A stretch of 42,788 bases of DNA from Candidatus Woesearchaeota archaeon (GTDB taxonomy: Archaea > Nanobdellota > Nanobdellia > Pacearchaeales > GW2011-AR1). The translations under genes were made by a program, and so were the position numbers. The notes below the pieces were generated by a model, which saw only the letters and a list, made by a program, of their open reading frames with translations, was not told where the DNA came from and did not search any database. The DNA is taken from positions 1-42,788 of the forward strand of contig CAYNAV010000001.1 of assembly GCA_964395405.1 (NCBI GenBank), given 5' to 3'. Shown piece after piece: positions 2,391 to 33,272 of the stretch. Within the stretch, counting starts at the first letter, position 1, and the number at the start of each line of letters is the position of its first letter.

Positions 2391-3770
2391 TTACCCACCA
2401 AAAAATCCCTTTAAAGCAGGATTCATATCAACAGCATGCTGTTGAGCAATATTTTGATACAACTGATATAATATCATGACAGCAAGAAGAATTGCAGTTC
2501 CTCCAACTAAAGCACCCATTAAATCCGCAACACTCGCTAACAACCCAATAGCAGCACCACCCATTACAGTTAAAGGAGTAACGTATCTTTTCAAAATACT
2601 TTCTAAGACTCTTTCATCATTTCTAAATCCCGGAATTCTCAATCCAGAAGACAAAATATTTTTTGCCTGACTTTGAGCATCCATCCCCGAAGTATTTACC
2701 CAAAACACAGAGAATAATATTGAAAATAATACATAAAACAAAACATGCCCCAATGCCTGCAAACCATAAATTGCCCTAAAGCTTCCAGTAATAATTGTCT
2801 CTAATAAAGGAACCTGATGAACCCAAAACAAGAAACCACATCCGGCAGCAGTACATACAGGAACACCATTTTCAATATTTCCTAAAAATGTAGGATGCCC
2901 TAAAGTATTCTGCAATAAACCTCCGGCTAATAACAAATTGGCAGAGACAGCCGAAACTAAAATAACCGGCATAACAGAAGCATAGAAGAACTGCAAAGGC
3001 CATTTGATTCCATAACCCCTCATTCTGTCAAAACTTAATGGTATTTCGACTTTTAATGATTGAGCCCATATAACAACTAAAAATAATATGATAGTAACAA
3101 TAATGGGGAACAACGCCCTTGCTGCTCCTGTTCCATCACCAGCAATAACGGCCGCAATTAATGCCAAAACCTTTCCTGACGATTCAAAGGTTCCCTGTAT
3201 ACCGATAAACTGGAATAACTGCGCAAATAATCTCCAACCGATTCCTGCTGCAATGAATATTGAAACACCAGAACCAAAGCCCCACTTCTGCAATACTTCA
3301 TCCATGAATATAATCAAGAATCCACCTAAACATAATTGAACAATAACTAAAGTTACAAATCCGGGTTGAGCTTCAATTCCCCTCATTAAAACATAAACCA
3401 TCGCTTCGAAAAGCACAAATGCAAATGCAAGAATCTTTTGTAACCCTTGGAAATATTTTTTACCTTCATCAGTATGGGTATCAATATTCAAAATCTGCGC
3501 GCCAACTAGCAGTTGAAGGATAATAGAAGCCATTACAATTGGACCGATACCCAGCGAGATAATTGAACCAAAAGATGTTCCAAGTAGGATAGCCAGATAT
3601 TCAAATCTTTGCATTGCATTTGCAGTTGTCCCAAACAAAGAAATATTAGATAAAACAAAGAAAGCCACAAGTATAATTAAAGTCCACTTAAGTTTCACGT
3701 TGAAACTAACTTTCTTTTCAACCGGCCTAGTTACTTCAGGCAGGTTAGACATAATATCTTTTAAAGCCAT
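2391..3770 (-). CDS. secY: preprotein translocase subunit SecY
   Basis: 459 aa, about 10 TM helices. Conserved position after uL15. SecY-like blocks (GIGPIVMASIILQLL, GSGVSIFI, RIPGFR). Confidence 0.95.
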   Translation of the reverse strand: MALKDIMSNLPEVTRPVEKKVSFNVKLKWTLIILVAFFVLSNISLFGTTANAMQRFEYLAILLGTSFGSIISLGIGPIVMASIILQLLVGAQILNIDTHTDEGKKYFQGLQKILAFAFVLFEAMVYVLMRGIEAQPGFVTLVIVQLCLGGFLIIFMDEVLQKWGFGSGVSIFIAAGIGWRLFAQLFQFIGIQGTFESSGKVLALIAAVIAGDGTGAARALFPIIVTIILFLVVIWAQSLKVEIPLSFDRMRGYGIKWPLQFFYASVMPVILVSAVSANLLLAGGLLQNTLGHPTFLGNIENGVPVCTAAGCGFLFWVHQVPLLETIITGSFRAIYGLQALGHVLFYVLFSILFSVFWVNTSGMDAQSQAKNILSSGLRIPGFRNDERVLESILKRYVTPLTVMGGAAIGLLASVADLMGALVGGTAILLAVMILYQLYQNIAQQHAVDMNPALKGFFGG

Positions 3771-4256: not shown

Positions 4257-4739
4257 TCACTGCTTTTTCTTTGCAACTTCTTTTTTGCCTTTTTCCTCAG
4301 AAGCAACTTTCTTAACTTTACTTGCAAGTATAATTATATCTCCACCAGCCTTCTTCATCTTATCAATCGCTTGTTTAGAAGCAGATTCAGCCTCGATAAC
4401 AGCCTTAAATCCGTCACCTTCACCTAAAATCTTATATTTCTTCAAATCAACAGTTTTACCCAAATCATAATTTCTTTTAATGGCTATTAAATTGATAGTC
4501 ATTGTTCTTTTCTTTTCAGTGCTTCTTGATGTAAATCCTTTTTTACCAAAATAAGCTTTAGCACCAGCCTCCTTAGCCATTGTCAATAATTTTTGCTTTT
4601 TATGATCTGCTCTCTTTCCACTTCCAGCAAATCCCTTTCCGCCTTTATTTCCAGAACCTTTATGCTTCTGTCTAAACCCATATCCGCATGTTCTTCCGCC
4701 TCTTATCCTTGAAGCTTTTGTACGCTTTTTGAGTTTCAT
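4257..4739 (-). CDS. rpl15: ribosomal protein uL15
   Basis: RIRGGRTCGYGFRQKHKGSGNKGGKG N-terminus. Operon position. ATGA overlap with the uL30 stop. Confidence 0.93.
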   Translation of the reverse strand: MKLKKRTKASRIRGGRTCGYGFRQKHKGSGNKGGKGFAGSGKRADHKKQKLLTMAKEAGAKAYFGKKGFTSRSTEKKRTMTINLIAIKRNYDLGKTVDLKKYKILGEGDGFKAVIEAESASKQAIDKMKKAGGDIIILASKVKKVASEEKGKKEVAKKKQ

Positions 4740-5109: not shown

Positions 5110-5919
5110 TTATATTTCCGCTTTATTCAATTTAATTAGAGCTTCAAAACAAGCCTTTGCATTGTTGATTGTTGTTCTTGTTTTACCAAATGTCTTACTG
5201 TAAACATCTTTTATTCCAGCTAATCTTAACATCTTTTTCAATTCAACTCCTGCAACTAATCCTGTTCCTTGAGGTGCAGGCATTAACTTAACAGTTACAG
5301 AAGAACACTTCCCTGTTGTGATTATAGGGATGCTGTGTAACTCATCACAAGAGCAATCAAAACTAGCGCACCCTCTTATTATCTTTTGAATATTAATTTT
5401 TGCTTTTCTTATTGCTTTCTCCCTAGCTGGCAAAGTTTCTTTAGCTCTTCCGCTTCCCAATCCAATATAACCTTTCCCATTCCCAACAACAGCCATTACA
5501 CTGAAAGTTGCAATGTTACCTTCCTTTGTCTTCTTTTGAGTCTGTCTCCAAGCTCTCCTCTTTCCTCCTCCAAACTTTCCTTTAGCCTGTCCAATAAAAA
5601 GCATATCATTCTTTAAATCAGGTAAAAGCAAATCTACAATTTCAGGTTCAAGTATCTTCCTTCCAGTTGCAAAGATCTCATCAATATTCTTTATCTTCCC
5701 ATTCTTAACTTCTCTTCCTAATTCTGTTTTTGGAACCCATGAACTTAATTTTTCTTTTTCTTCTCTAGCAAATCTTTCTTCTCTAGTCTCCCTTCTTCTT
5801 TCCTCATAAGTCATTTCTTTAATTGCCTCTTCAGTAGCCTCTGTCTCCTTCTTCTTTTCTTTTCTTTCTATAATTTTAGACATTTCTTCTAAATTTTTTT
5901 CATGAATATTTACTGCCAT
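5110..5919 (-). CDS. rps5: ribosomal protein uS5 with about 58-aa Glu/Lys/Arg-rich N-terminal extension
   Basis: WVPKTELGREV and VVGNGKGYIGLGSGRAKE core blocks. Operon position. Confidence 0.93.
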   Translation of the reverse strand: MAVNIHEKNLEEMSKIIERKEKKKETEATEEAIKEMTYEERRRETREERFAREEKEKLSSWVPKTELGREVKNGKIKNIDEIFATGRKILEPEIVDLLLPDLKNDMLFIGQAKGKFGGGKRRAWRQTQKKTKEGNIATFSVMAVVGNGKGYIGLGSGRAKETLPAREKAIRKAKINIQKIIRGCASFDCSCDELHSIPIITTGKCSSVTVKLMPAPQGTGLVAGVELKKMLRLAGIKDVYSKTFGKTRTTINNAKACFEALIKLNKAEI

Positions 5920-14058: not shown

Positions 14059-14837
14059 TTAAACTTTTCTCCGATTTCTTTAATTGCTTTTTCAGTATAA
14101 CATGCTAATCTTCCAGGCTCTCCATTTGGAGCTAGGTCTTTAATCATCAATTCATCTACCTTAACAACATTAATTCCCTTTCTACTCATTTTTTCATCAC
14201 TCGCAATAATGAAGATCATTCCAGCGTTAGACTTATATTTTCTTCCTCTCGTCTTTCCTCTCCCCGCTCTCTGTGTTTTATTTTTTAATATTTTAGCATT
14301 ATCTCCAAAAATCTTTTCCATTGTTTCAATAAATTCTTTTGTCTTTAGTTTTAAAATTTCCTCAGAAAAAACAAAACCTGAATTAAGTTTCATATTGTAT
14401 TTTTTTTCAATTGACTTCTCATCAAATGTTCCGGCCAACGCAGAATTAAAAGCAATCGATAGTTCTTTCTTATTTATTTTTCTGAATGTATTCTTCTCTG
14501 CTTTAGGCGCATGAGGTTTTCTTCCACCTCTTGCAGATGCAACAGTAGCACCAACCCAATTGAAAGATGAACCATGTCTTGACATAATTTTTCTTGGAAC
14601 TCTTGAAATCCCCTTACCATAAGTTCCTTTCCATCTGTGTCTAGCCTTTATTGAAATACCGGAAGCAGAATATCCAGCACCAGCTCCAGGCATGATTCCG
14701 TAAGGTTGCATAAAAAATCCCTTTTGAGCCTCAAAAACTTTTTGCAAGATGTCTTTTCTTATTCTAAATGAAAAGTTCTTAGGCATCTCCATTGTTGATT
14801 TTTCCTTCCCTGTTTTATCTAATATTTTTGTTTTCAT
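14055..14837 (-). CDS. rpl4: ribosomal protein uL4
   Basis: 260 aa. L4/L1e blocks (ARHRWKGTYGKGISRVPR, GRGKTRGRKYK). Precedes rpl23. Confidence 0.93.
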   Translation of the reverse strand: MKTKILDKTGKEKSTMEMPKNFSFRIRKDILQKVFEAQKGFFMQPYGIMPGAGAGYSASGISIKARHRWKGTYGKGISRVPRKIMSRHGSSFNWVGATVASARGGRKPHAPKAEKNTFRKINKKELSIAFNSALAGTFDEKSIEKKYNMKLNSGFVFSEEILKLKTKEFIETMEKIFGDNAKILKNKTQRAGRGKTRGRKYKSNAGMIFIIASDEKMSRKGINVVKVDELMIKDLAPNGEPGRLACYTEKAIKEIGEKFK

Positions 14838-15142
14838 TTTGAACCAACCCCCCTCAAAGATACTCGAGTAGATAAGTCCACAGCCGCATTATATTCTAGA
14901 ACAAAACTAGATTGATATACTTTTTTTGCAGTATCCAAGTCGGTAAAAGTTCTTGAAATACATTCCTCTTCCTTAACAGCTTCTTCAGTAGAGTGTCTTA
15001 ATGCACAAAGATAACCCAGAGGTAAAGTATCAAACTGCTTATTAGTATCCTTTAACAAAATAGCAGCATGAGTTACCAAACCTGTTAACAAATTGTCTCT
15101 CTTAACTGCTTGTGCTCTTGTTAATTGTGTATGTTGGTTCAT
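14834..15142 (-). CDS. hypothetical 102-aa protein embedded between rpl3 and rpl4
   Basis: It is the only long frame here on either strand. Its ATG overlaps the rpl3 TGA (ATGA at 15142-15139) and its TGA overlaps the rpl4 ATG (ATGA at 14837-14834). The protein is not basic, is probably helical, and has no recognisable motif. Confidence 0.7.
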   Translation of the reverse strand: MNQHTQLTRAQAVKRDNLLTGLVTHAAILLKDTNKQFDTLPLGYLCALRHSTEEAVKEEECISRTFTDLDTAKKVYQSSFVLEYNAAVDLSTRVSLRGVGSK

Positions 15143-16083
15143 CTTAATTCAATAACCTCATAATTCTTTTTAGCTGTTAATTTGGTAGGTCTCATAGAAG
15201 GAGTAATCATTACAGGTCTTTTCTTAACGCCAGGAATCGAACCAAGTAAAATCATATAATCTGTTTTTATTTTCCCGTATTTATGAAATCCGGAGTCTTT
15301 ATTTATATCTTTTTCAGAAGTCTTTCCGATCTGTAAAATCATTTGATTATAACTTACTCTTGTCTGCAATCCAACCTGCCCCATCAAAGGAGCTCTAAAT
15401 GTAACTCTTGAAGGATTCCAAGGTGCCAAAGAACCAGGCCTTCTTACTCCTTTCTCAGACTTATGGAATTTAAGAGAGATCCCAAATCTCTTTACAGGCC
15501 CGTGCGTTCCAAAGCCCTTAGTTACACCACGAATATCAACCAACTGATTTTTAAAAACATCTTTAACTGAAATACTTTTATTTATTCTTTCTTTTACAAA
15601 ATCAAGTTTCTCTTCTTTTGTTCCAGAGATAGCAAGCTCAATCATATCAGGTGATTTTTTAATTCCTGTCTTTTTCACATCAGAGTAAACGATAACCCGT
15701 AAATCATCATAGTCTCTAGTAAATTCAAGTTTTCCAGTTTGTTTTGGAACCTTTACCTTGCTCTTAAGATCTTTTTCATTTGAAACAATTATATCTTTCA
15801 AAACAATTCCATTTTTATAAAATCTTACAGAATAAATTTTTAACTCAGGGCACTCAAGCATTGTTGCAGGAACAACAATCTTTTTCCCTTTCGTTAAAGA
15901 ATCAGGAGTATTATCCTTCACATAAACAGAACACATTCCAACTTTATATCCAATAAAACCTTTTAGCCCCTTATCTTTTGTTTTTTCTAGAACAGGACTC
16001 CAGTTAACACTAGGTAAAATCTTTCTTGCCCTTTTTCGAGGGTAAAATTGTAAGCTTCCACTTCTTACTGTGTTGTCTGTCAT
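15139..16083 (-). CDS. rpl3: ribosomal protein uL3
   Basis: GSLQFYPRKRA start, GYKVGM, GVTKGFGTHGPVKRFG, PLMGQVGLQTR blocks. First gene of the string. Confidence 0.95.
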   Translation of the reverse strand: MTDNTVRSGSLQFYPRKRARKILPSVNWSPVLEKTKDKGLKGFIGYKVGMCSVYVKDNTPDSLTKGKKIVVPATMLECPELKIYSVRFYKNGIVLKDIIVSNEKDLKSKVKVPKQTGKLEFTRDYDDLRVIVYSDVKKTGIKKSPDMIELAISGTKEEKLDFVKERINKSISVKDVFKNQLVDIRGVTKGFGTHGPVKRFGISLKFHKSEKGVRRPGSLAPWNPSRVTFRAPLMGQVGLQTRVSYNQMILQIGKTSEKDINKDSGFHKYGKIKTDYMILLGSIPGVKKRPVMITPSMRPTKLTAKKNYEVIELR

Positions 16084-16341: not shown

Positions 16342-17046
16342 TCACGCAACAAATTCAGCTTCAGAAATCTTCTTTACACCATCAATACTAACTTCTCGGA
16401 TAAGAACACCCTTTCTTTTACTGTTTTCCCTAACTTGTTCAGGCCTCATTCCGTTCATATCTTTAGGATAAATTATTTCATTTATCTTAAGAATGTGTTT
16501 TGCTTTAATCTCACTAAAATCAGGAGAATCGAAAAACAACTCTTTAACCAAAGCCATATCAGAAGTCTTCAAAGAGCAAAAGTCCGCCTTAGGACCATCT
16601 TCATCCGTCTTTCCAGCTTTCCCAGTCTTAGGAGCTTTTGCCTTTATCTTTAATTCAGAAAAACCAGTCTTAAAACTTAAAGCAAAAAAACATCTCGGAT
16701 ACTTTTCCATTAACTTTAAAATTTTATCTTTACTGATTTTTGAATCAATTTCATGCTTTCTAATTCCCTGAAAATTTCCAACTTTCTTAATCTCAAATTC
16801 AGCTTCCTTTCTTAAATCAAAAGTCGCAACAATAATTCCCTTAAATTCAACATCACCATTTGCCTTCTCTAAACATTTTCTAACAAGATAATTTGCAAAT
16901 TCAGCACTAGTCTTTATACTATATTTGTCCTTCTGCTTTTTCCCCTCGGTCAGATATCTATCTTTAAATTCTCCTCGAGAAAACTTTAAAAAATCAGAAT
17001 GAACCTCTTCATCGAACACGCCAGCAAATATGTTTTTTATAATCAT
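16342..17046 (-). CDS. hypothetical protein (234 aa) between nusA and the rpl3 operon
   Basis: Clean ATG-started ORF with no TM segment. Central Lys/Gly/Asp-rich linker (KAKAPKTGKAGKTDEDGPKADFC). No family recognised. Confidence 0.6.
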   Translation of the reverse strand: MIIKNIFAGVFDEEVHSDFLKFSRGEFKDRYLTEGKKQKDKYSIKTSAEFANYLVRKCLEKANGDVEFKGIIVATFDLRKEAEFEIKKVGNFQGIRKHEIDSKISKDKILKLMEKYPRCFFALSFKTGFSELKIKAKAPKTGKAGKTDEDGPKADFCSLKTSDMALVKELFFDSPDFSEIKAKHILKINEIIYPKDMNGMRPEQVRENSKRKGVLIREVSIDGVKKISEAEFVA

Positions 17047-17104
17047 TACAACAAAACAAGAATGTGATTTATAAAACTTTCTTTATCCAGAAATAGACCA
17101 CCAA

Positions 17105-17515
17105 TTACGCAATCTTCAACTTACCAATCTTAAAAAAAATCTTGAGAATATCTTGTAATTCATTTTCTCTCTGCCTTCCTCTCCCAATCAAAGCAGCCTT
17201 ACTCTGTCTCCCTGCAGTCAAAGTAACTAATCCATCCTTTTCTTCTGCTTTTGTAAATGTAATTGGGGAAACAACGTCGGCTATAAACTGCTCAATATTA
17301 TCCGTCATTGCAACAACCTTAATTTTTTTCCTTAAGATTTCACCAACGGACTTCATGTTAATCCCATTTTTCCCAACTGCTTTAGAAACCATAGCTCTTG
17401 GGACAACAAAGATAATTACATTATTATAAACAAAGCAATGCCTTGTAGAAACTCTAGAAACTCTTTCAAACAAATTAATATACCTCATCAGTTGCATGTC
17501 AATTACATTATTCAT
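17105..17515 (-). CDS. nusA: archaeal NusA-like KH-domain protein
   Basis: Two KH-like segments (AVGKNGINMKSVGEIL and AALIGRGRQRENEL). Canonical slot after rpl30e. The track start at 17524 is TTG, and the ATG at 17515 forms an ATGA overlap with the rpl30e stop. Confidence 0.85.
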   Translation of the reverse strand: MNNVIDMQLMRYINLFERVSRVSTRHCFVYNNVIIFVVPRAMVSKAVGKNGINMKSVGEILRKKIKVVAMTDNIEQFIADVVSPITFTKAEEKDGLVTLTAGRQSKAALIGRGRQRENELQDILKIFFKIGKLKIA

Positions 17516-17754
17516 TTCAGACAAAAAACCTCATTTTCAAAACCAATACCTAGATCCTTAGCAACATCTTCCTTGGATTTAAGAACCTCATACTCTATAT
17601 CTTTTGCATCAAGCTTAGCCAAAGTATCATCCCTTGTATCTCTACAAACAAAAACCTTACATTTCTTTTTTCCAGAGCAGCTCTTAAGAGTTTGCTTTAT
17701 TCCAAAACAAACTTTTTCTTTTTCAATTGCTTCTTTAATTTCTTTAACACTCAT
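17512..17754 (-). CDS. rpl30e: ribosomal protein eL30 (short, 80 aa)
   Basis: L7Ae/L30e-like pattern (FGIKQTLKS...KCKVFVCRD...DVAKDLGIGFENEVFCL). Canonical slot between rpoA and nusA. Confidence 0.8.
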   Translation of the reverse strand: MSVKEIKEAIEKEKVCFGIKQTLKSCSGKKKCKVFVCRDTRDDTLAKLDAKDIEYEVLKSKEDVAKDLGIGFENEVFCLK

Positions 17755-17794: not shown

Positions 17795-20700
17795 TTACTC
17801 TTTCTTCTTGGATTTCTGTTTTGCTTTTTGCTCAGCGAGAGGTCCAGTAACTTCTACGAGCAAACCAGGCAATCCAGTTCCAACAGGAACAGGTTGATTC
17901 AAAATTATATTTTCAATTACAGACGCAAGCTTATCTCTCTTTCCAGACTTCGTAGCATTTACAAAATGTTTAACTGGCGTCTCAAACGAAGCTCTTGCAA
18001 GAACACTCCCCTTATCAGAAATAATTCCCATTCTTGTAATTCCTTTAACAACACCCGCATTAGTCATTGTATCAGCAACTAATTCTAAATGTTTCATATC
18101 AATATCAAGGCCCTGTGAAACAATAACCTTTTGAATCTCATGCATAATTGAGGCTCTTGCTGCTTCTATTCCTAGAACTGCACAAATTTCATGTAAATCA
18201 TTTGTAAAAACCTTTTCATTATTTACTCCTTTAAATATAACAATATCTTTAAGATTAGAACCCGCAGTTAAAATAACGTAGTCTCTTTCTCTCTTAACAA
18301 CTAAAACTTGCCTTATACCCTTTACACCAGAAAGGATAACATCTTTTATTTTTTCCTTTGTTTTGTATATCTCTTTAAATGTACTTTGAGAAGCATCAAT
18401 CACAAGTAAGTCATTTTTCTTTTTAATATCATAACCCTTGTCATTCAAAACATCAACAACCTTATCAAGACCCATATGAACTCTCTTTAAAGCATCATTA
18501 TCCATAGTAATTTCTATTTTTTTATTTGTGAAGTTAATCCCAATCTCATTTATAATCTCTTTAAGCTTTACTTCTTTAATTTTTTCAGCAACTATTCTGG
18601 AGTCTTTTTCATTGTTATGATCTTTATCTAAGAATATCTCCATCGTAGGTGTCGAAGGCGTTTTTCTTGCATCTAAAATTTCAATCAATCTTGGTAAACC
18701 TTGCGTAACCTGCATTTCAGCGACACCTGCAGAGTGGAATACATTCAAAACCATCTGAGTAGAAGACTCACCAAACGACTGCGCAGTAACCAAACCAATT
18801 GCTTCACCTGGAGCAACTTTCTGATTTTTATGAGCTCCAGAAACATCAACACCATCACCACCATAGGCAAATTGTATAACGTTATTAGAAGCATCTCTTA
18901 TTGTTCCGTCATAAGCAACGATTAAATCTTGCAATGCATTTGCAAGTCTTCTGTATAAATAACCCGACTTTGGTGTTCTCAAAGCAGTATCCATTAAACC
19001 GTCTCTTCCAGTCATAGCTCCAAAGAAAAATTCTTCAGGCCTTAATCCATTCATGAAAGAATTATAAATAAATCCACCCGCCCTTGGGGATAAATCCCCT
19101 CTCTTGAAAACAGGCAATGTTCTTCCAGTATAACCAAACTGAATTCTCTTACCGCCTAAAACCTGTTGTCCGACCGAACATGAAATCTGAGTAATGTTTA
19201 ACATACTTCCACCAGCCTTAGATAAAATCATTTTGTTAACAGGATTATCTTTTGGGAACTCTTCCTTAACGAATTTACCAATATCCGTTCTAATCTCATT
19301 CAGAACCTGAAGAATCTTTATCTCTCTTGTCTCTTCAGAGGTTTTTCCTGGCAAATCTTCAAGACTCTTATCATAAAAAGATTCAATAATCTTCTGAACT
19401 TTGTCCTCGGCAGTTGCAATAATCTTCTGCGTTTTATCCTTAACATGTTGAGGAACACTAACATCATTCACCGAAATTGTAAACCCATTTCTAGATAAGA
19501 AAACAACTCCAAGTGCAAAAACATCCCTTAACGTATCCACAGCAGTTCTTCTATCAAATTCCTTATCAATTCTAGCTAACGAATCACCATCTTCAACCAG
19601 AAAACCCGAAGAAGTAATCCTAGAATTCCTAAGGTCTTTTGGAAGTGCATTCGCAAAGATTTCCTTCCCAGTATTTGTTTTGTTAACTGAGAAATTCTTA
19701 ATTCCCGCTTCATGAAGCATCTGAATTGCATCTTCTCTTCCAATGTCACTTTCTTCTAAAATATAATTTCCAGTAACTGCATCTCCAATACAACCCAAAA
19801 GATTTGTATTATTCTTCGGAGAAAACATATTAGCTTCAACATTCAACAATACTTCAGCTTCACTTCTTGCTTCCTCCGTCTGAGGCCCATGAATATTCAT
19901 TTCATCTCCATCAAAATCGGCATTGTAAGGGAAACATACTGCTGGATGCATTCTAAATGTTCTGTAAGGTAAAACCTTTACGAAATGAGCCATTAACGAA
20001 GCTCTATGCAAAGAAGGATGTCTGTTAAATAAAACAACATCACCATCTATTAAATGTCTCTCAACAATATAACCTGGTTCAATTTCTTTAGACAAATCAG
20101 CTTTCAAGTCAGGAGTAATTCTTTTTCTTTTTCCATCAGTCCTTATAATATAATTAGCACCAGGATAACTCTCAGCGAGAACTATCTTTCTTAATCTTTC
20201 AATATTCAGAGAAGTAACCCTCTCAGCAACTGTCAAAATTTTAGCAACTTCAAATGGAACACCAACTTCATTCAACTTCAAATTAGGATCTGGTGAAATA
20301 ACAGTTCTTGCAGAGAAATTAACTCTCTTTCCAGCCAAATTCTTTCTAATTCTTCCTTCCTTCCCTTTAATTCTTTCAGTGATCGTTTTTAATGGCTGTC
20401 CGCTCCTATGTCTTGCGGGAGGTATTCTTGCAATAGAATTATCAAAAAATGTTGTAACATGATACTGTAATAAATCCCATAAATCTTCAATGATGACTTC
20501 CGGAGCACCAGCATTTAAATTTTCCCATAACCTCTGGTTTGCTCTTATAATATCAGACAACTTATGGGTCAAATCATCTTCACTTCTCTCTCCAGACTCT
20601 AATGTAATTGAAGGTCTTACGGTTACCGGAGGAACCAAAAGTAAAGTTAGAATTGACCATTCTGGTCTTAGGGTCTTGCCATTAATTCCTAAAAGTTTTA

Positions 20701-21220
20701 ATTCCTCCTGTGGAACCTTTACTAATCTTTCTCTAATCTCTGAAGGGAATAGTCTTCTTTTCCCAGCCCTAAATGTCGCTGGTTTTTCAAGTTTAACTCT
20801 TTCCTGAATGATACCACAATGCGGACACTTCTTGCCATCTTTTGATTTTTTTATTCTAGTTTTTAAATCCTTATCTCTGTCTTTTGCATCAAGTAAAACT
20901 TTCCCACAGGCTTCGCATGTATGCCTTAAAATTAAATCGATTACTTGTAGATATTTAATATGTAAAACTGGCCTAGCCAATTCAATTATCCCCGAATGTC
21001 CTAAACACTCCTTTAATCTTCCACCACATGTTCTACATCTTACACCCGGGTCTATAGCTCCTAGTCTTAAATCCATTAAACCACCATCAACTGGATAACC
21101 ATCGATATCATATAATTCAGGCGTAACTATCTTTGCAACTCCAACTTTTTTAATCTGCTCAGGACTGAACAAACTGAATTTGATTGCATTAACTTGTTTT
21201 TTTATTGGTTTAATTGTCAT
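17795..21220 (-). CDS. rpoA: DNA-directed RNA polymerase subunit A, A' and A'' fused in one 1141-aa ORF
   Basis: N-terminal zinc motifs (CRTCGGRLKECLGH). Catalytic PYNADFDGDE at 19901-19930. Bridge-helix block GRDGLMDTALRTPKSGYLYRRL. Without any stop it continues ...GGDGVDVSGAHKNQKVAPGEAIGLVTAQSFGESSTQMVLNVFHSAGV (the trigger-loop start of A'') through to the A'' C-terminus. Confidence 0.93.
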   Translation of the reverse strand: MTIKPIKKQVNAIKFSLFSPEQIKKVGVAKIVTPELYDIDGYPVDGGLMDLRLGAIDPGVRCRTCGGRLKECLGHSGIIELARPVLHIKYLQVIDLILRHTCEACGKVLLDAKDRDKDLKTRIKKSKDGKKCPHCGIIQERVKLEKPATFRAGKRRLFPSEIRERLVKVPQEELKLLGINGKTLRPEWSILTLLLVPPVTVRPSITLESGERSEDDLTHKLSDIIRANQRLWENLNAGAPEVIIEDLWDLLQYHVTTFFDNSIARIPPARHRSGQPLKTITERIKGKEGRIRKNLAGKRVNFSARTVISPDPNLKLNEVGVPFEVAKILTVAERVTSLNIERLRKIVLAESYPGANYIIRTDGKRKRITPDLKADLSKEIEPGYIVERHLIDGDVVLFNRHPSLHRASLMAHFVKVLPYRTFRMHPAVCFPYNADFDGDEMNIHGPQTEEARSEAEVLLNVEANMFSPKNNTNLLGCIGDAVTGNYILEESDIGREDAIQMLHEAGIKNFSVNKTNTGKEIFANALPKDLRNSRITSSGFLVEDGDSLARIDKEFDRRTAVDTLRDVFALGVVFLSRNGFTISVNDVSVPQHVKDKTQKIIATAEDKVQKIIESFYDKSLEDLPGKTSEETREIKILQVLNEIRTDIGKFVKEEFPKDNPVNKMILSKAGGSMLNITQISCSVGQQVLGGKRIQFGYTGRTLPVFKRGDLSPRAGGFIYNSFMNGLRPEEFFFGAMTGRDGLMDTALRTPKSGYLYRRLANALQDLIVAYDGTIRDASNNVIQFAYGGDGVDVSGAHKNQKVAPGEAIGLVTAQSFGESSTQMVLNVFHSAGVAEMQVTQGLPRLIEILDARKTPSTPTMEIFLDKDHNNEKDSRIVAEKIKEVKLKEIINEIGINFTNKKIEITMDNDALKRVHMGLDKVVDVLNDKGYDIKKKNDLLVIDASQSTFKEIYKTKEKIKDVILSGVKGIRQVLVVKRERDYVILTAGSNLKDIVIFKGVNNEKVFTNDLHEICAVLGIEAARASIMHEIQKVIVSQGLDIDMKHLELVADTMTNAGVVKGITRMGIISDKGSVLARASFETPVKHFVNATKSGKRDKLASVIENIILNQPVPVGTGLPGLLVEVTGPLAEQKAKQKSKKKE

Positions 21221-26051: not shown

Positions 26052-26167
26052 TGGCCCCGACGGGATTTGAACCCGCGACACCTGGATTTCTTCTTCACGA
26101 AGAATCGAAAGTCACAAAGTGACTCTCTTTAAAAGTCCAGTGCTCTACCAAGCTGAGCTACGGAGCC
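26052..26167 (-). tRNA. tRNA-Lys(UUU) with a 42-nt intron at the canonical 37/38 position
   Basis: Hand fold. Acceptor GGCTCCG/CGGGGCC. D arm GCTC-AGCTTGGTA-GAGC. Anticodon stem CTGGA/TCCAG enclosing CTTTTA[42 nt]A. T arm GCGGG-TTCAAAT-CCCGT. Discriminator A; no encoded CCA. Confidence 0.88.
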
Positions 26168-33060: not shown

Positions 33061-33100
33061 GTTATTATGTCTGAAAATGGGTTTTTAAAGTTAATTAAAA

Positions 33101-33173
33101 TGGGGCTACGCGGATTTGAACCGCGGCCGCGAAGTCCCAAACCTCGAATCCTACCAGACTAGACTATAGCCCC
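33101..33173 (-). tRNA. tRNA-Pro(UGG)
   Basis: Hand fold. Acceptor GGGGCTA/TAGCCCC. Anticodon arm CGAGG-TTTGGGA-CTTCG. T arm CGCGG-TTCAAAT-CCGCG. Discriminator A. 73 nt, no intron. Confidence 0.9.
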
Positions 33174-33272
33174 ATTAATTTAAGGGGTTTTAGTTGATTA
33201 ATAAATCTTACGACTTCTGGATCTAGTATCTGTTACCGATAAAAATTTCTTAGAATTTTAAAATGATAAGAC

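Follow-up and report, generated by a model that had tools for sequence, protein, structure and literature searches.

An orphan open reading frame welded between rpl3 and rpl4 of a Pacearchaeota-type archaeon, probably one case of a recurrent class of junction genes

How does an orphan gene come to lie between rpl3 and rpl4, within one of the highly conserved strings of ribosomal protein (r-protein) genes? The question is raised by a 42,788-nucleotide (nt) stretch of archaeal DNA (contig CAYNAV010000001.1 of assembly GCA_964395405.1; this whole stretch is referred to as the window), which derives from a Pacearchaeota-type DPANN archaeon whose nearest public uL3 proteins are just 68–70% identical to its own. 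On the minus strand, a 309-nt open reading frame (ORF) encoding 102 amino acids (aa), here termed orf102, occupies the space between the two genes and overlaps each of them in an ATGA. Its position, length, translation and the ATGA at both ends were all found as given in an initial annotation of this DNA. The analysis described below indicates that orf102 is probably an orphan gene that is translated, has a native origin and acts at the least as a translational relay from rpl3 to rpl4, with a soluble, non-basic and fast-evolving product whose own function is possibly weak. It is also likely to be one case of a recurrent class of ORFs with fast turnover that, in Pacearchaeota, occupy the first four junctions of the rpl3-rps19 cluster.

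Both neighbors of orf102 are complete, with uL3 spanning positions 5–327 of 342 in the NCBIfam archaeal L3 model and uL4 spanning positions 1–250 of 251 in TIGR03672. Because neither lacks a part, orf102 is not a split-off piece of uL3 or uL4 but a separate gene-like ORF, as had been supposed. The predicted isoelectric point (pI) of its product is 7.8, as compared to 9.7–11.2 for the adjacent r-proteins, and hydropathy reveals no hydrophobic or transmembrane (TM) segment, in agreement with the earlier description of a non-basic protein without a TM segment. A small helical bundle had been envisaged initially; an AlphaFold2 model from the single sequence contains four helices, at a mean predicted local distance difference test score (pLDDT) of 44.8, too low for use on that point or for fold comparison. 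Each end of orf102 shows the sequence hallmark of a termination-reinitiation coupled pair, namely co-directional genes with a −4 or −1 nt overlap. The 3′ end of orf102 additionally harbors a Shine-Dalgarno (SD)-like run, GAGGGGGG, which dictates the C-terminal ...LRGVGSK of the product. Joints of −4, −1 or +1 nt are the usual style of the operon in the window (approximately 13 of 28 junctions), so that the welding is not peculiar to orf102.

The coding character of orf102 was assessed from its frame, its codon usage and its recovery in other assemblies. Only 3 of 20,000 mononucleotide shuffles of the orf102 interior were stop-free (P about 1.5e-4), which upholds the claim that such a frame is unlikely by chance. 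The opposite strand was said to hold no competitor, and indeed no rival ORF of at least 40 aa lies inside orf102; a 40-aa one (14749–14871) just clips its 3′ end. The in-frame codon score of 0.317 bit per codon compares to 0.338 ± 0.106 for 100-codon windows of the real genes in the window, −0.158 ± 0.098 for random stop-free strings, and about −0.85 for the off frames of orf102. The amino-acid term of this score is 0.042 (genes, 0.074 ± 0.063), 2.7 standard deviations over random, and the synonymous-codon term is 0.143 (genes, 0.134 ± 0.079), 4.2 standard deviations over random. The DNA of orf102 is identical across eight retrieved contigs (JGI, ENA and Logan assemblies). Among these contigs is L008, a 508-nt chimera that turns into unrelated GC-rich sequence 23 nt into rpl4; its apparently different downstream neighbor was rejected for that reason. 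No structured RNA was indicated at orf102, as the folding z-score of −0.05 corresponds to no stability beyond shuffles, and Rfam at its gathering threshold returned no match there, but just two tRNAs elsewhere in the window.

These results bear directly on the notion that orf102 is no gene, its open frame being due to chance in an untranslated spacer, to a structured regulatory RNA, or to an artefact of assembly or frameshift. The lack of homologs and the low-confidence structure prediction would fit such an origin, and the AT-rich window does contain 69 spurious open stretches of at least 60 codons, though all of them are antisense to real genes. Set against this are the low probability of a chance open frame, codon usage 4–5 standard deviations over that of random stop-free strings, the exact ATGA at both ends, identical DNA in eight independent assemblies, the unremarkable RNA folding with nothing from Rfam, and an open sense frame in every one of more than 90 comparable spacers of relatives. 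This explanation is thus largely refuted and very improbable.

By sequence comparison, orf102 is unique among the libraries and collections searched. No match at E ≤ 1 was obtained from Pfam or NCBIfam, and none from PHROGs; the best PADLOC match (typeIV_Cas8, E 0.0074, 13.8 bits) is not credible, and PDB sequences yielded nothing (best E 1.6). A word-indexed search of 5.8 billion clustered proteins returned orf102 alone; its 90% cluster holds no other member, and it occurs on 12 or more contigs. An exhaustive phmmer search of 1.84 billion representatives returned orf102 itself and one other protein, P0122 (633 aa, E 3.6e-7). The latter was treated as an artefact rather than a relative, because it is a tandem-repeat protein aligned over six repeats. 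IMG/VR viral contigs and phage records likewise contained no relative. The initial judgment that orf102 fits no recognized family is therefore sustained across Pfam, NCBIfam, PHROGs, PADLOC, PDB and 1.84–5.8 billion proteins, with no profile match to a piece of uL3 or uL4 or to a described family. Local duplication as a source of orf102 was rejected, since blastn and tblastx against the masked window and the loci of 80 relatives gave chance matches only, and the repeats flanking orf102 are also only chance ones.

To place orf102 in its lineage, the corresponding junctions were compared in two sets of 80 loci, one drawn from species-representative genomes and the other from metagenomes, with some loci recurring in both. 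Room at a junction was measured in a frame-aware manner as at least 120 nt of DNA assignable to neither neighbor; this measure took over from an earlier estimate of the S19–L22 gap, which was biased by the N-terminally extended uL22 of the window. Directly abutting rpl3 and rpl4 are found in about 77% of related loci, including the close L009, L094 and L099, and by the criterion of the initial annotation this abutment counts against a conserved factor at the junction. In about 23% of loci, a same-strand ORF of 64–149 aa fills rpl3–rpl4. Room was present at 34 of 151 L3–L4, 18 of 136 L4–L23, 32 of 129 L23–L2 and 13 of 118 L2–S19 junctions, as compared to 0 of 83 at S19–L22 and 0 of 54 at L22–S3; the rpl4–rpl23, rpl23–rpl2 and rpl2–rps19 junctions thus behave like rpl3–rpl4. 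In gaps of more than 150 nt, a same-strand ORF takes up at least 80% of the length in 59 of 63 genome cases and 33 of 34 metagenome cases, and these ORFs mostly lie −4 to +2 nt from both neighbors. Relatives had been proposed as a check, through either abutment or a non-conserved, frame-broken spacer. Close relatives do abut, and spacers, where present, are not conserved, but they are never frame-broken: all of more than 90 comparable spacers are open in the sense frame. An extreme example, L169 (1–6390 of Ga0315537_1000027), reads L3-L4-(RNase_T, 214 aa)-L23-(129)-(108)-L2-(80)-S19-(100)-L22-S3, with five extra ORFs 1–2 nt apart, one of them at S19–L22, all called independently by JGI.

The occupants of these junctions are diverse. 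Clustering of junction ORFs of at least 50 aa (blastp threshold 1e-3) produced 24 unrelated sequence clusters at L3–L4, 25 at L23–L2, 11 at L4–L23 and 9 at L2–S19, and no cluster spans two junctions. No credible match to Pfam, PHROGs or PADLOC, and none to nuclease families, was found for the 23 L3–L4 occupants from genomes. The sole recognizable family among inserted ORFs is an RNase_T/DEDD exonuclease (PF00929, E 7e-10) of 212–221 aa, which at least 10 related loci (L040, L053, L065, L073, L079, L134, L135, L142, L160, L167 and L169) carry in welded form between rpl4 and rpl23. The biggest family of small ORFs, at L23–L2, has six members in 5.8 billion proteins, and its AlphaFold2 model from six sequences (pLDDT 48.6) is too poor for naming a fold. 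No relatives beyond the junction context were found for any tested junction ORF. Comparison of orf102 to 107 other junction ORFs gave a best phmmer E of 0.3 (database of 108) and a best hhalign probability of 2.6%. A hidden superfamily including orf102 was rejected, as iterative hidden Markov model (HMM) searches and hhalign link it to nothing. The only hhalign links are weak ones (57–69% probability over about 30 residues) among three beta-type families at L23–L2 and L2–S19. These connect L033/L060/L084/L162 (L23–L2) to L044/L058 and L060/L099 (L2–S19) through an N-terminal motif L..L..L..GD.V, which hints at a possible beta-rich superfamily common to two junctions.

In composition, junction proteins resemble orf102 in being mostly neutral or acidic (median pI 6.5, 61% below 7), and none has a TM-like segment. 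The GC content of orf102 (0.356) is near that of its flanks (0.336), as is the case for most inserts of relatives; deviants include L011 (0.45 versus 0.38 in the flanks), L086 (0.365 versus 0.446) and L068 (0.253 versus 0.324). Target-site duplication was not evident, junction-context similarity being equal within and between loci (0.459 versus 0.459), and comparison of relatives' inserts to their own loci by blastn and tblastx gave chance matches only. A mobile cassette or insertion element was rejected on the basis of repeats occurring only at chance level, the lack of cross-junction clusters, and host-like GC and codon usage.

Turnover of the occupants is rapid. The L3–L4 junction is filled in 23 of 80 genomes, and at least 19 state changes are counted on a uL3+uL4 tree, a number that is approximate for a quick neighbor-joining tree of two proteins. 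Loss can be followed in one pair of loci with 93% identical DNA. At L2–S19, L044 carries a 111-aa ORF (2767–3102), which has a homolog in the distant L058, and L069 carries a 52-nt spacer (5683–5734) with a 17-codon ORF joined by TAATG welds at both ends. This spacer and the L044 ORF align at their 5′ ends, and the mini-ORF therefore looks like a deletion remnant. Two families allow rates of evolution to be measured. The junction ORFs of L060 and L084 share 64% aa identity, with a nonsynonymous rate (dN) of 0.23 versus 0.07–0.10 in the flanks, a synonymous rate (dS) of 1.15, and a dN/dS ratio (omega) of about 0.2; those of L075 and L082 share 44% identity, with dN of 0.65 versus 0.09–0.25 in the flanks. 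Measurable occupants thus evolve approximately 3–4 times faster than the flanking r-proteins, yet not neutrally, and the omega of the L060/L084 family indicates that some junction ORFs encode truly constrained proteins. Given that rate, an ortholog of orf102 in a genome with 68% uL3 identity would lie close to the limit of detection or past it, and the fast evolution of junction ORFs can explain its orphan status.

Shorter spacers show the same architecture in miniature. Spacers of 25–160 nt are bridged in 15 of 25 cases by a welded mini-ORF of 6–52 codons, as compared to about 2 expected from shuffles; these mini-ORFs start a few nt from the upstream stop and end on or beside the downstream start. 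At L3–L4 of two of the closest relatives, L089 has a 19-codon and L104 a 16-codon mini-ORF; in both, ATGA forms either end and an SD-like GGAG precedes rpl4. SD-like 4-mers at −18 to −5 of the downstream r-protein gene start occur in 46% of inserted ORFs versus 14% of internal windows, a 3.3-fold enrichment. In Haloferax volcanii and Escherichia coli, ATGA and TGATG pairs are strictly coupled by termination-reinitiation, and a distance of about 20 nt between stop and start nearly abolishes reinitiation (PMC6728339, PMC10666635). By analogy to these experiments, which include an archaeon, the coupling of orf102 proposed in the initial annotation is probable. The simplest reading of the junction sequences is that downstream r-protein genes in these operons would be fed by ribosomes terminating just upstream, for which the bridged short spacers (15 of 25) offer indirect support.

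Applied to orf102, ribosomes finishing rpl3 at its UGA would reinitiate on the overlapping AUG of orf102, read 102 codons and stop at the UGA that overlaps the rpl4 AUG, where the SD-like GAGGGGGG, 10 nt upstream, would be followed by reinitiation on rpl4. Because reinitiation would collapse at a spacing of about 20 nt, DNA between rpl3 and rpl4 could persist only as a welded, efficiently decoded ORF, and the product of orf102 would be made at roughly r-protein levels as a consequence of coupling. The open frame, both ATGA overlaps, the embedded SD-like run and the host-like codon usage of orf102 would then be accounted for by the coupling constraint, not by a conserved ribosomal function, and the protein itself may be dispensable. 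With regard to origin, prokaryotic orphans with host-like GC have been argued to be mostly native (PMC11293555), and orf102 may plausibly have arisen natively, whether born de novo or through rapid divergence. A direct examination of the de novo route found no homolog of orf102; the nearest relatives abut or hold mini-ORFs of 16–19 codons, and no alignable ancestral sequence is available at 68–70% uL3 identity. Sizes that grade from 6 to about 150 codons, GC close to that of the host and the failure to find homologs elsewhere agree with what this route would predict.

The location of orf102 between rpl3 and rpl4, joined to both, also invites a ribosomal role, and a lineage-specific ribosome-associated protein or assembly factor had been named as a candidate at the outset; a chaperone of uL3 or uL4, coupled so as to meet its partner, would be of the same kind. 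Such a role is in keeping with the enrichment of short overlaps among subunits of heteromeric complexes (PMC10666635), with the gathering of inserts around uL3, uL4, uL23 and uL2 and not at S19–L22–S3, with purifying selection in one sister family (omega about 0.2), and with the acidic or neutral nature of many junction proteins, as a chaperone of very basic proteins might have. However, no ortholog of orf102 was found in about 150 related loci or billions of proteins, the junction is empty in about 77% of relatives, and its occupants fall into 24 unrelated clusters of differing lengths and compositions, with occupancy that differs between sister genomes. The product of orf102 is moreover not basic, junction proteins in general are mostly neutral or acidic, and the AlphaFold2 model is not confident. 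The candidate is therefore not supported in this form and is considered unlikely, and a new lineage-specific ribosomal protein is likewise not supported, there being no ortholog in about 150 loci and a pI of 7.8 versus 9.7–11.2. Sequence diversity at the junction could alternatively conceal a single ancestral gene, from which all rpl3–rpl4 occupants, orf102 included, would descend by evolution too fast for recognition and with many losses. Junction ORFs do evolve 3–4 times faster than r-proteins, an orf102 ortholog would be near the detection limit at 68% uL3 identity, clusters are junction-specific, and loss by deletion is documented (L069 versus L044, whose ORF has its homolog in distant L058). 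Common descent is nevertheless difficult to reconcile with lengths from 64 to 149 aa and classes that differ by eye (Cys-rich, beta-rich and helical), with hhalign probabilities of 3% or less and no cross-cluster link at L3–L4, and with at least 19 state changes that would all need to be losses; it is judged quite improbable.

The remaining alternative is a stowaway gene, either selfish or acquired horizontally, of viral, plasmid, toxin, antitoxin, defence or anti-defence type, hard to lose once established since its loss must be exact. The patchiness of occupied junctions, which differ between sister genomes, is suggestive of such elements, as are the inserts of L011, L086 and L068 that deviate from flank GC and the recognizable non-ribosomal RNase_T exonuclease in the operon of at least 10 relatives. 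In contrast, the GC content and synonymous codon usage of orf102 are those of the host, no credible match came from PHROGs, PADLOC (best E 0.0074), IMG/VR or phage records, no flanking repeats or target-site duplications were detected, clusters never move between junctions, and the tested junction ORFs have no relatives outside this context. Of the two ideas offered in the initial annotation, a stowaway using the expression of the operon comes closest to the data. Import from outside is the part that finds no support, given the host GC and the lack of viral, phage and defence matches, and acquisition of this kind is rather unlikely for orf102.

Several points weigh against the preferred reading of orf102 as a native, translationally coupled orphan gene whose product may itself do little. 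Given that one sister family has an omega of about 0.2, a "weak or dispensable function" may be wrong for orf102, and with neither a homolog nor population variants (one member in the 90% cluster), selection on its protein is not measurable. The source of 300 nt of stop-free DNA left no signal of local duplication, flanking repeats or target-site duplication, and the frequency of gain and loss depends on the approximate tree mentioned above. Finally, the case for transcription, translation and coupling in this organism is drawn from sequence and from the Haloferax and E. coli experiments. Directly observed are the anatomy and uniqueness of orf102, the pattern across the lineage, the mini-ORFs, the SD enrichment, and evolution in sister families that is quick yet under constraint; operative coupling, native origin and a dispensable protein are inferred.

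Among known systems, free-standing homing endonuclease genes sit between conserved genes of T4-like phages. Like junction ORFs, they are small and patchy between conserved neighbors and differ between sister genomes; unlike them, junction ORFs are shorter, show no sign of movement, and, for 23 at L3–L4, have no nuclease match. Eukaryotes possess dedicated r-protein chaperones in Acl4 (uL4) and Rrb1 (uL3), which resemble orf102 in being non-ribosomal and tied to the production of uL3 and uL4; the resemblance does not extend to sequence, fold or conservation and is an analogy only. Parallels are also found in coupled overlapping gene pairs (Huber et al. 2019, 2023; PMC6728339, PMC10666635), which share with orf102 co-directional genes, a 4-nt ATGA, an SD-like motif in the upstream 3′ end and an operon for one complex. 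They differ in that orf102 would be an orphan relay between partners normally coupled directly, and is known here from sequence alone. Prokaryotic orphan genes (Vakirlis and Kupczok 2024, PMC11293555) similarly lack homologs and are short, with host-like GC and low-confidence structures, but orf102 stands apart from the usual orphan through its location inside a highly conserved string, its host-typical codons, and a slot re-used by unrelated orphans in relatives. Non-ribosomal, co-transcribed residents of r-protein clusters are also familiar, including bacterial secY, adk, infA and map, archaeal aIF1/SUI1 and RNase P Rpp29, and Hsp20 in some Asgard clusters (PMC10833476), and the cluster in the window itself holds SUI1 and SecY. 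Those residents are conserved families at fixed positions across phyla, whereas ORFs of the orf102 type are lineage-unique and variable, and lie within L3-L4-L23-L2. Full-text searches turned up, among the papers covered, no account of orphan ORFs in the L3-L4-L23-L2-S19 string of DPANN archaea; this is absence of evidence and no proof of novelty.

Table 1. Coordinates of orf102, its joints and other features of the window
Feature	Position	Strand	Remarks
orf102, orphan 102-aa ORF	14834–15142	−	309 nt; neutral, no TM segment
rpl3 (uL3), complete, 314 aa	15139–16083	−	PF00297, E 1.5e-54
ATGA overlap 1, rpl3 stop/orf102 start	15139–15142	−	rpl3 TGA 15141–15139, orf102 ATG 15142–15140
ATGA overlap 2, orf102 stop/rpl4 start	14834–14837	−	orf102 TGA 14836–14834, rpl4 ATG 14837–14835
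rpl4 (uL4), complete, 260 aa	14055–14837	−	PF00573, E 1.1e-17
GAGGT, SD-like, inside rpl3 3′ end	15155–15159	−	12 nt upstream of orf102 ATG; putative function
GAGGGGGG, SD-like run inside orf102 3′ end	14848–14855	−	10 nt upstream of rpl4 ATG
SecY	2391–3770
Acidic ORF, 129 aa	3818–4207	−	no Pfam match
uL15	4257–4739
uS5, 269 aa	5110–5919	−	about 120 residues ahead of S5 domain
uL22, 215 aa	12037–12684	−	N-terminal extension of about 85 aa
ORF upstream of rpl3, 234 aa	16342–17046	−	no Pfam match
rpoB-rpoA-L30e-NusA(KH) cluster	17795–21220 and 16342–17754 regions		runs into rpl3 cluster
RNA polymerase subunit A, 1141 aa	17795–21220	−	single ORF, Rpb1 domains 1–5
Rfam tRNA match	26052–26167	−	116 nt
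tRNA-Pro	33100–33174		called by ARAGORN

Other features of the window (Table 1) concern the same operon and its surroundings. A second unknown gene of the operon, the 129-aa ORF between uL15 and SecY, is 49 and 47 nt from its neighbors and not welded to them. The 234-aa ORF lies immediately upstream of rpl3; tblastn places a relative of it upstream of rpl3, at 73–2500 nt, in 50 of 79 related genomes, and it is therefore taken to be a conserved lineage protein. Lineage-specific extensions are present in uL22, where the added residues are Lys/Glu-rich, and ahead of the S5 domain in uS5. The RNA polymerase subunit A is encoded by a single ORF, unlike the split A′/A″ of most archaea, and the polymerase cluster continues into the rpl3 cluster without S12, S7 or elongation factors in between. 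The length of the Rfam tRNA match at 26052 suggests an intron, and ARAGORN called only the tRNA-Pro.

Taken alone, orf102 is extraordinary only in its place and otherwise an ordinary orphan gene; the interest lies in the lineage-wide junction pattern. The rpl3-rpl4-rpl23-rpl2 string, held to be near-immutable and used as a marker in phylogeny and binning, repeatedly tolerates unrelated orphan ORFs in one archaeal order, and even what remains after a loss would still be translated. A testable rule follows, namely that obligatory termination-reinitiation would force intervening DNA into an ORF. For annotation, junction ORFs and mini-ORFs are not to be dismissed as spurious. The occupants would amount to more than 60 orphan proteins with high expression, from organisms of largely unknown biology, and to a replicated natural system for the origin of new genes, whether by de novo growth, rapid divergence or import. 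A more speculative proposal, put forward tentatively and considered possible though doubtful, is that, in Pacearchaeota, new proteins arise in a translation-locked cradle formed by the 5′ junctions of the rpl3-rps19 cluster, where DNA must stay a welded ORF and is expressed at r-protein levels from birth. If this were true, the continuum from 6-codon relays to 150-aa proteins, the dozens of unrelated orphan families, and the rapid gain and loss with occasional capture of a function (omega about 0.2 in one family) would be stages of one process; orf102 would be a newborn or adolescent protein, and these junctions a natural, replicated experiment in archaeal de novo gene birth.

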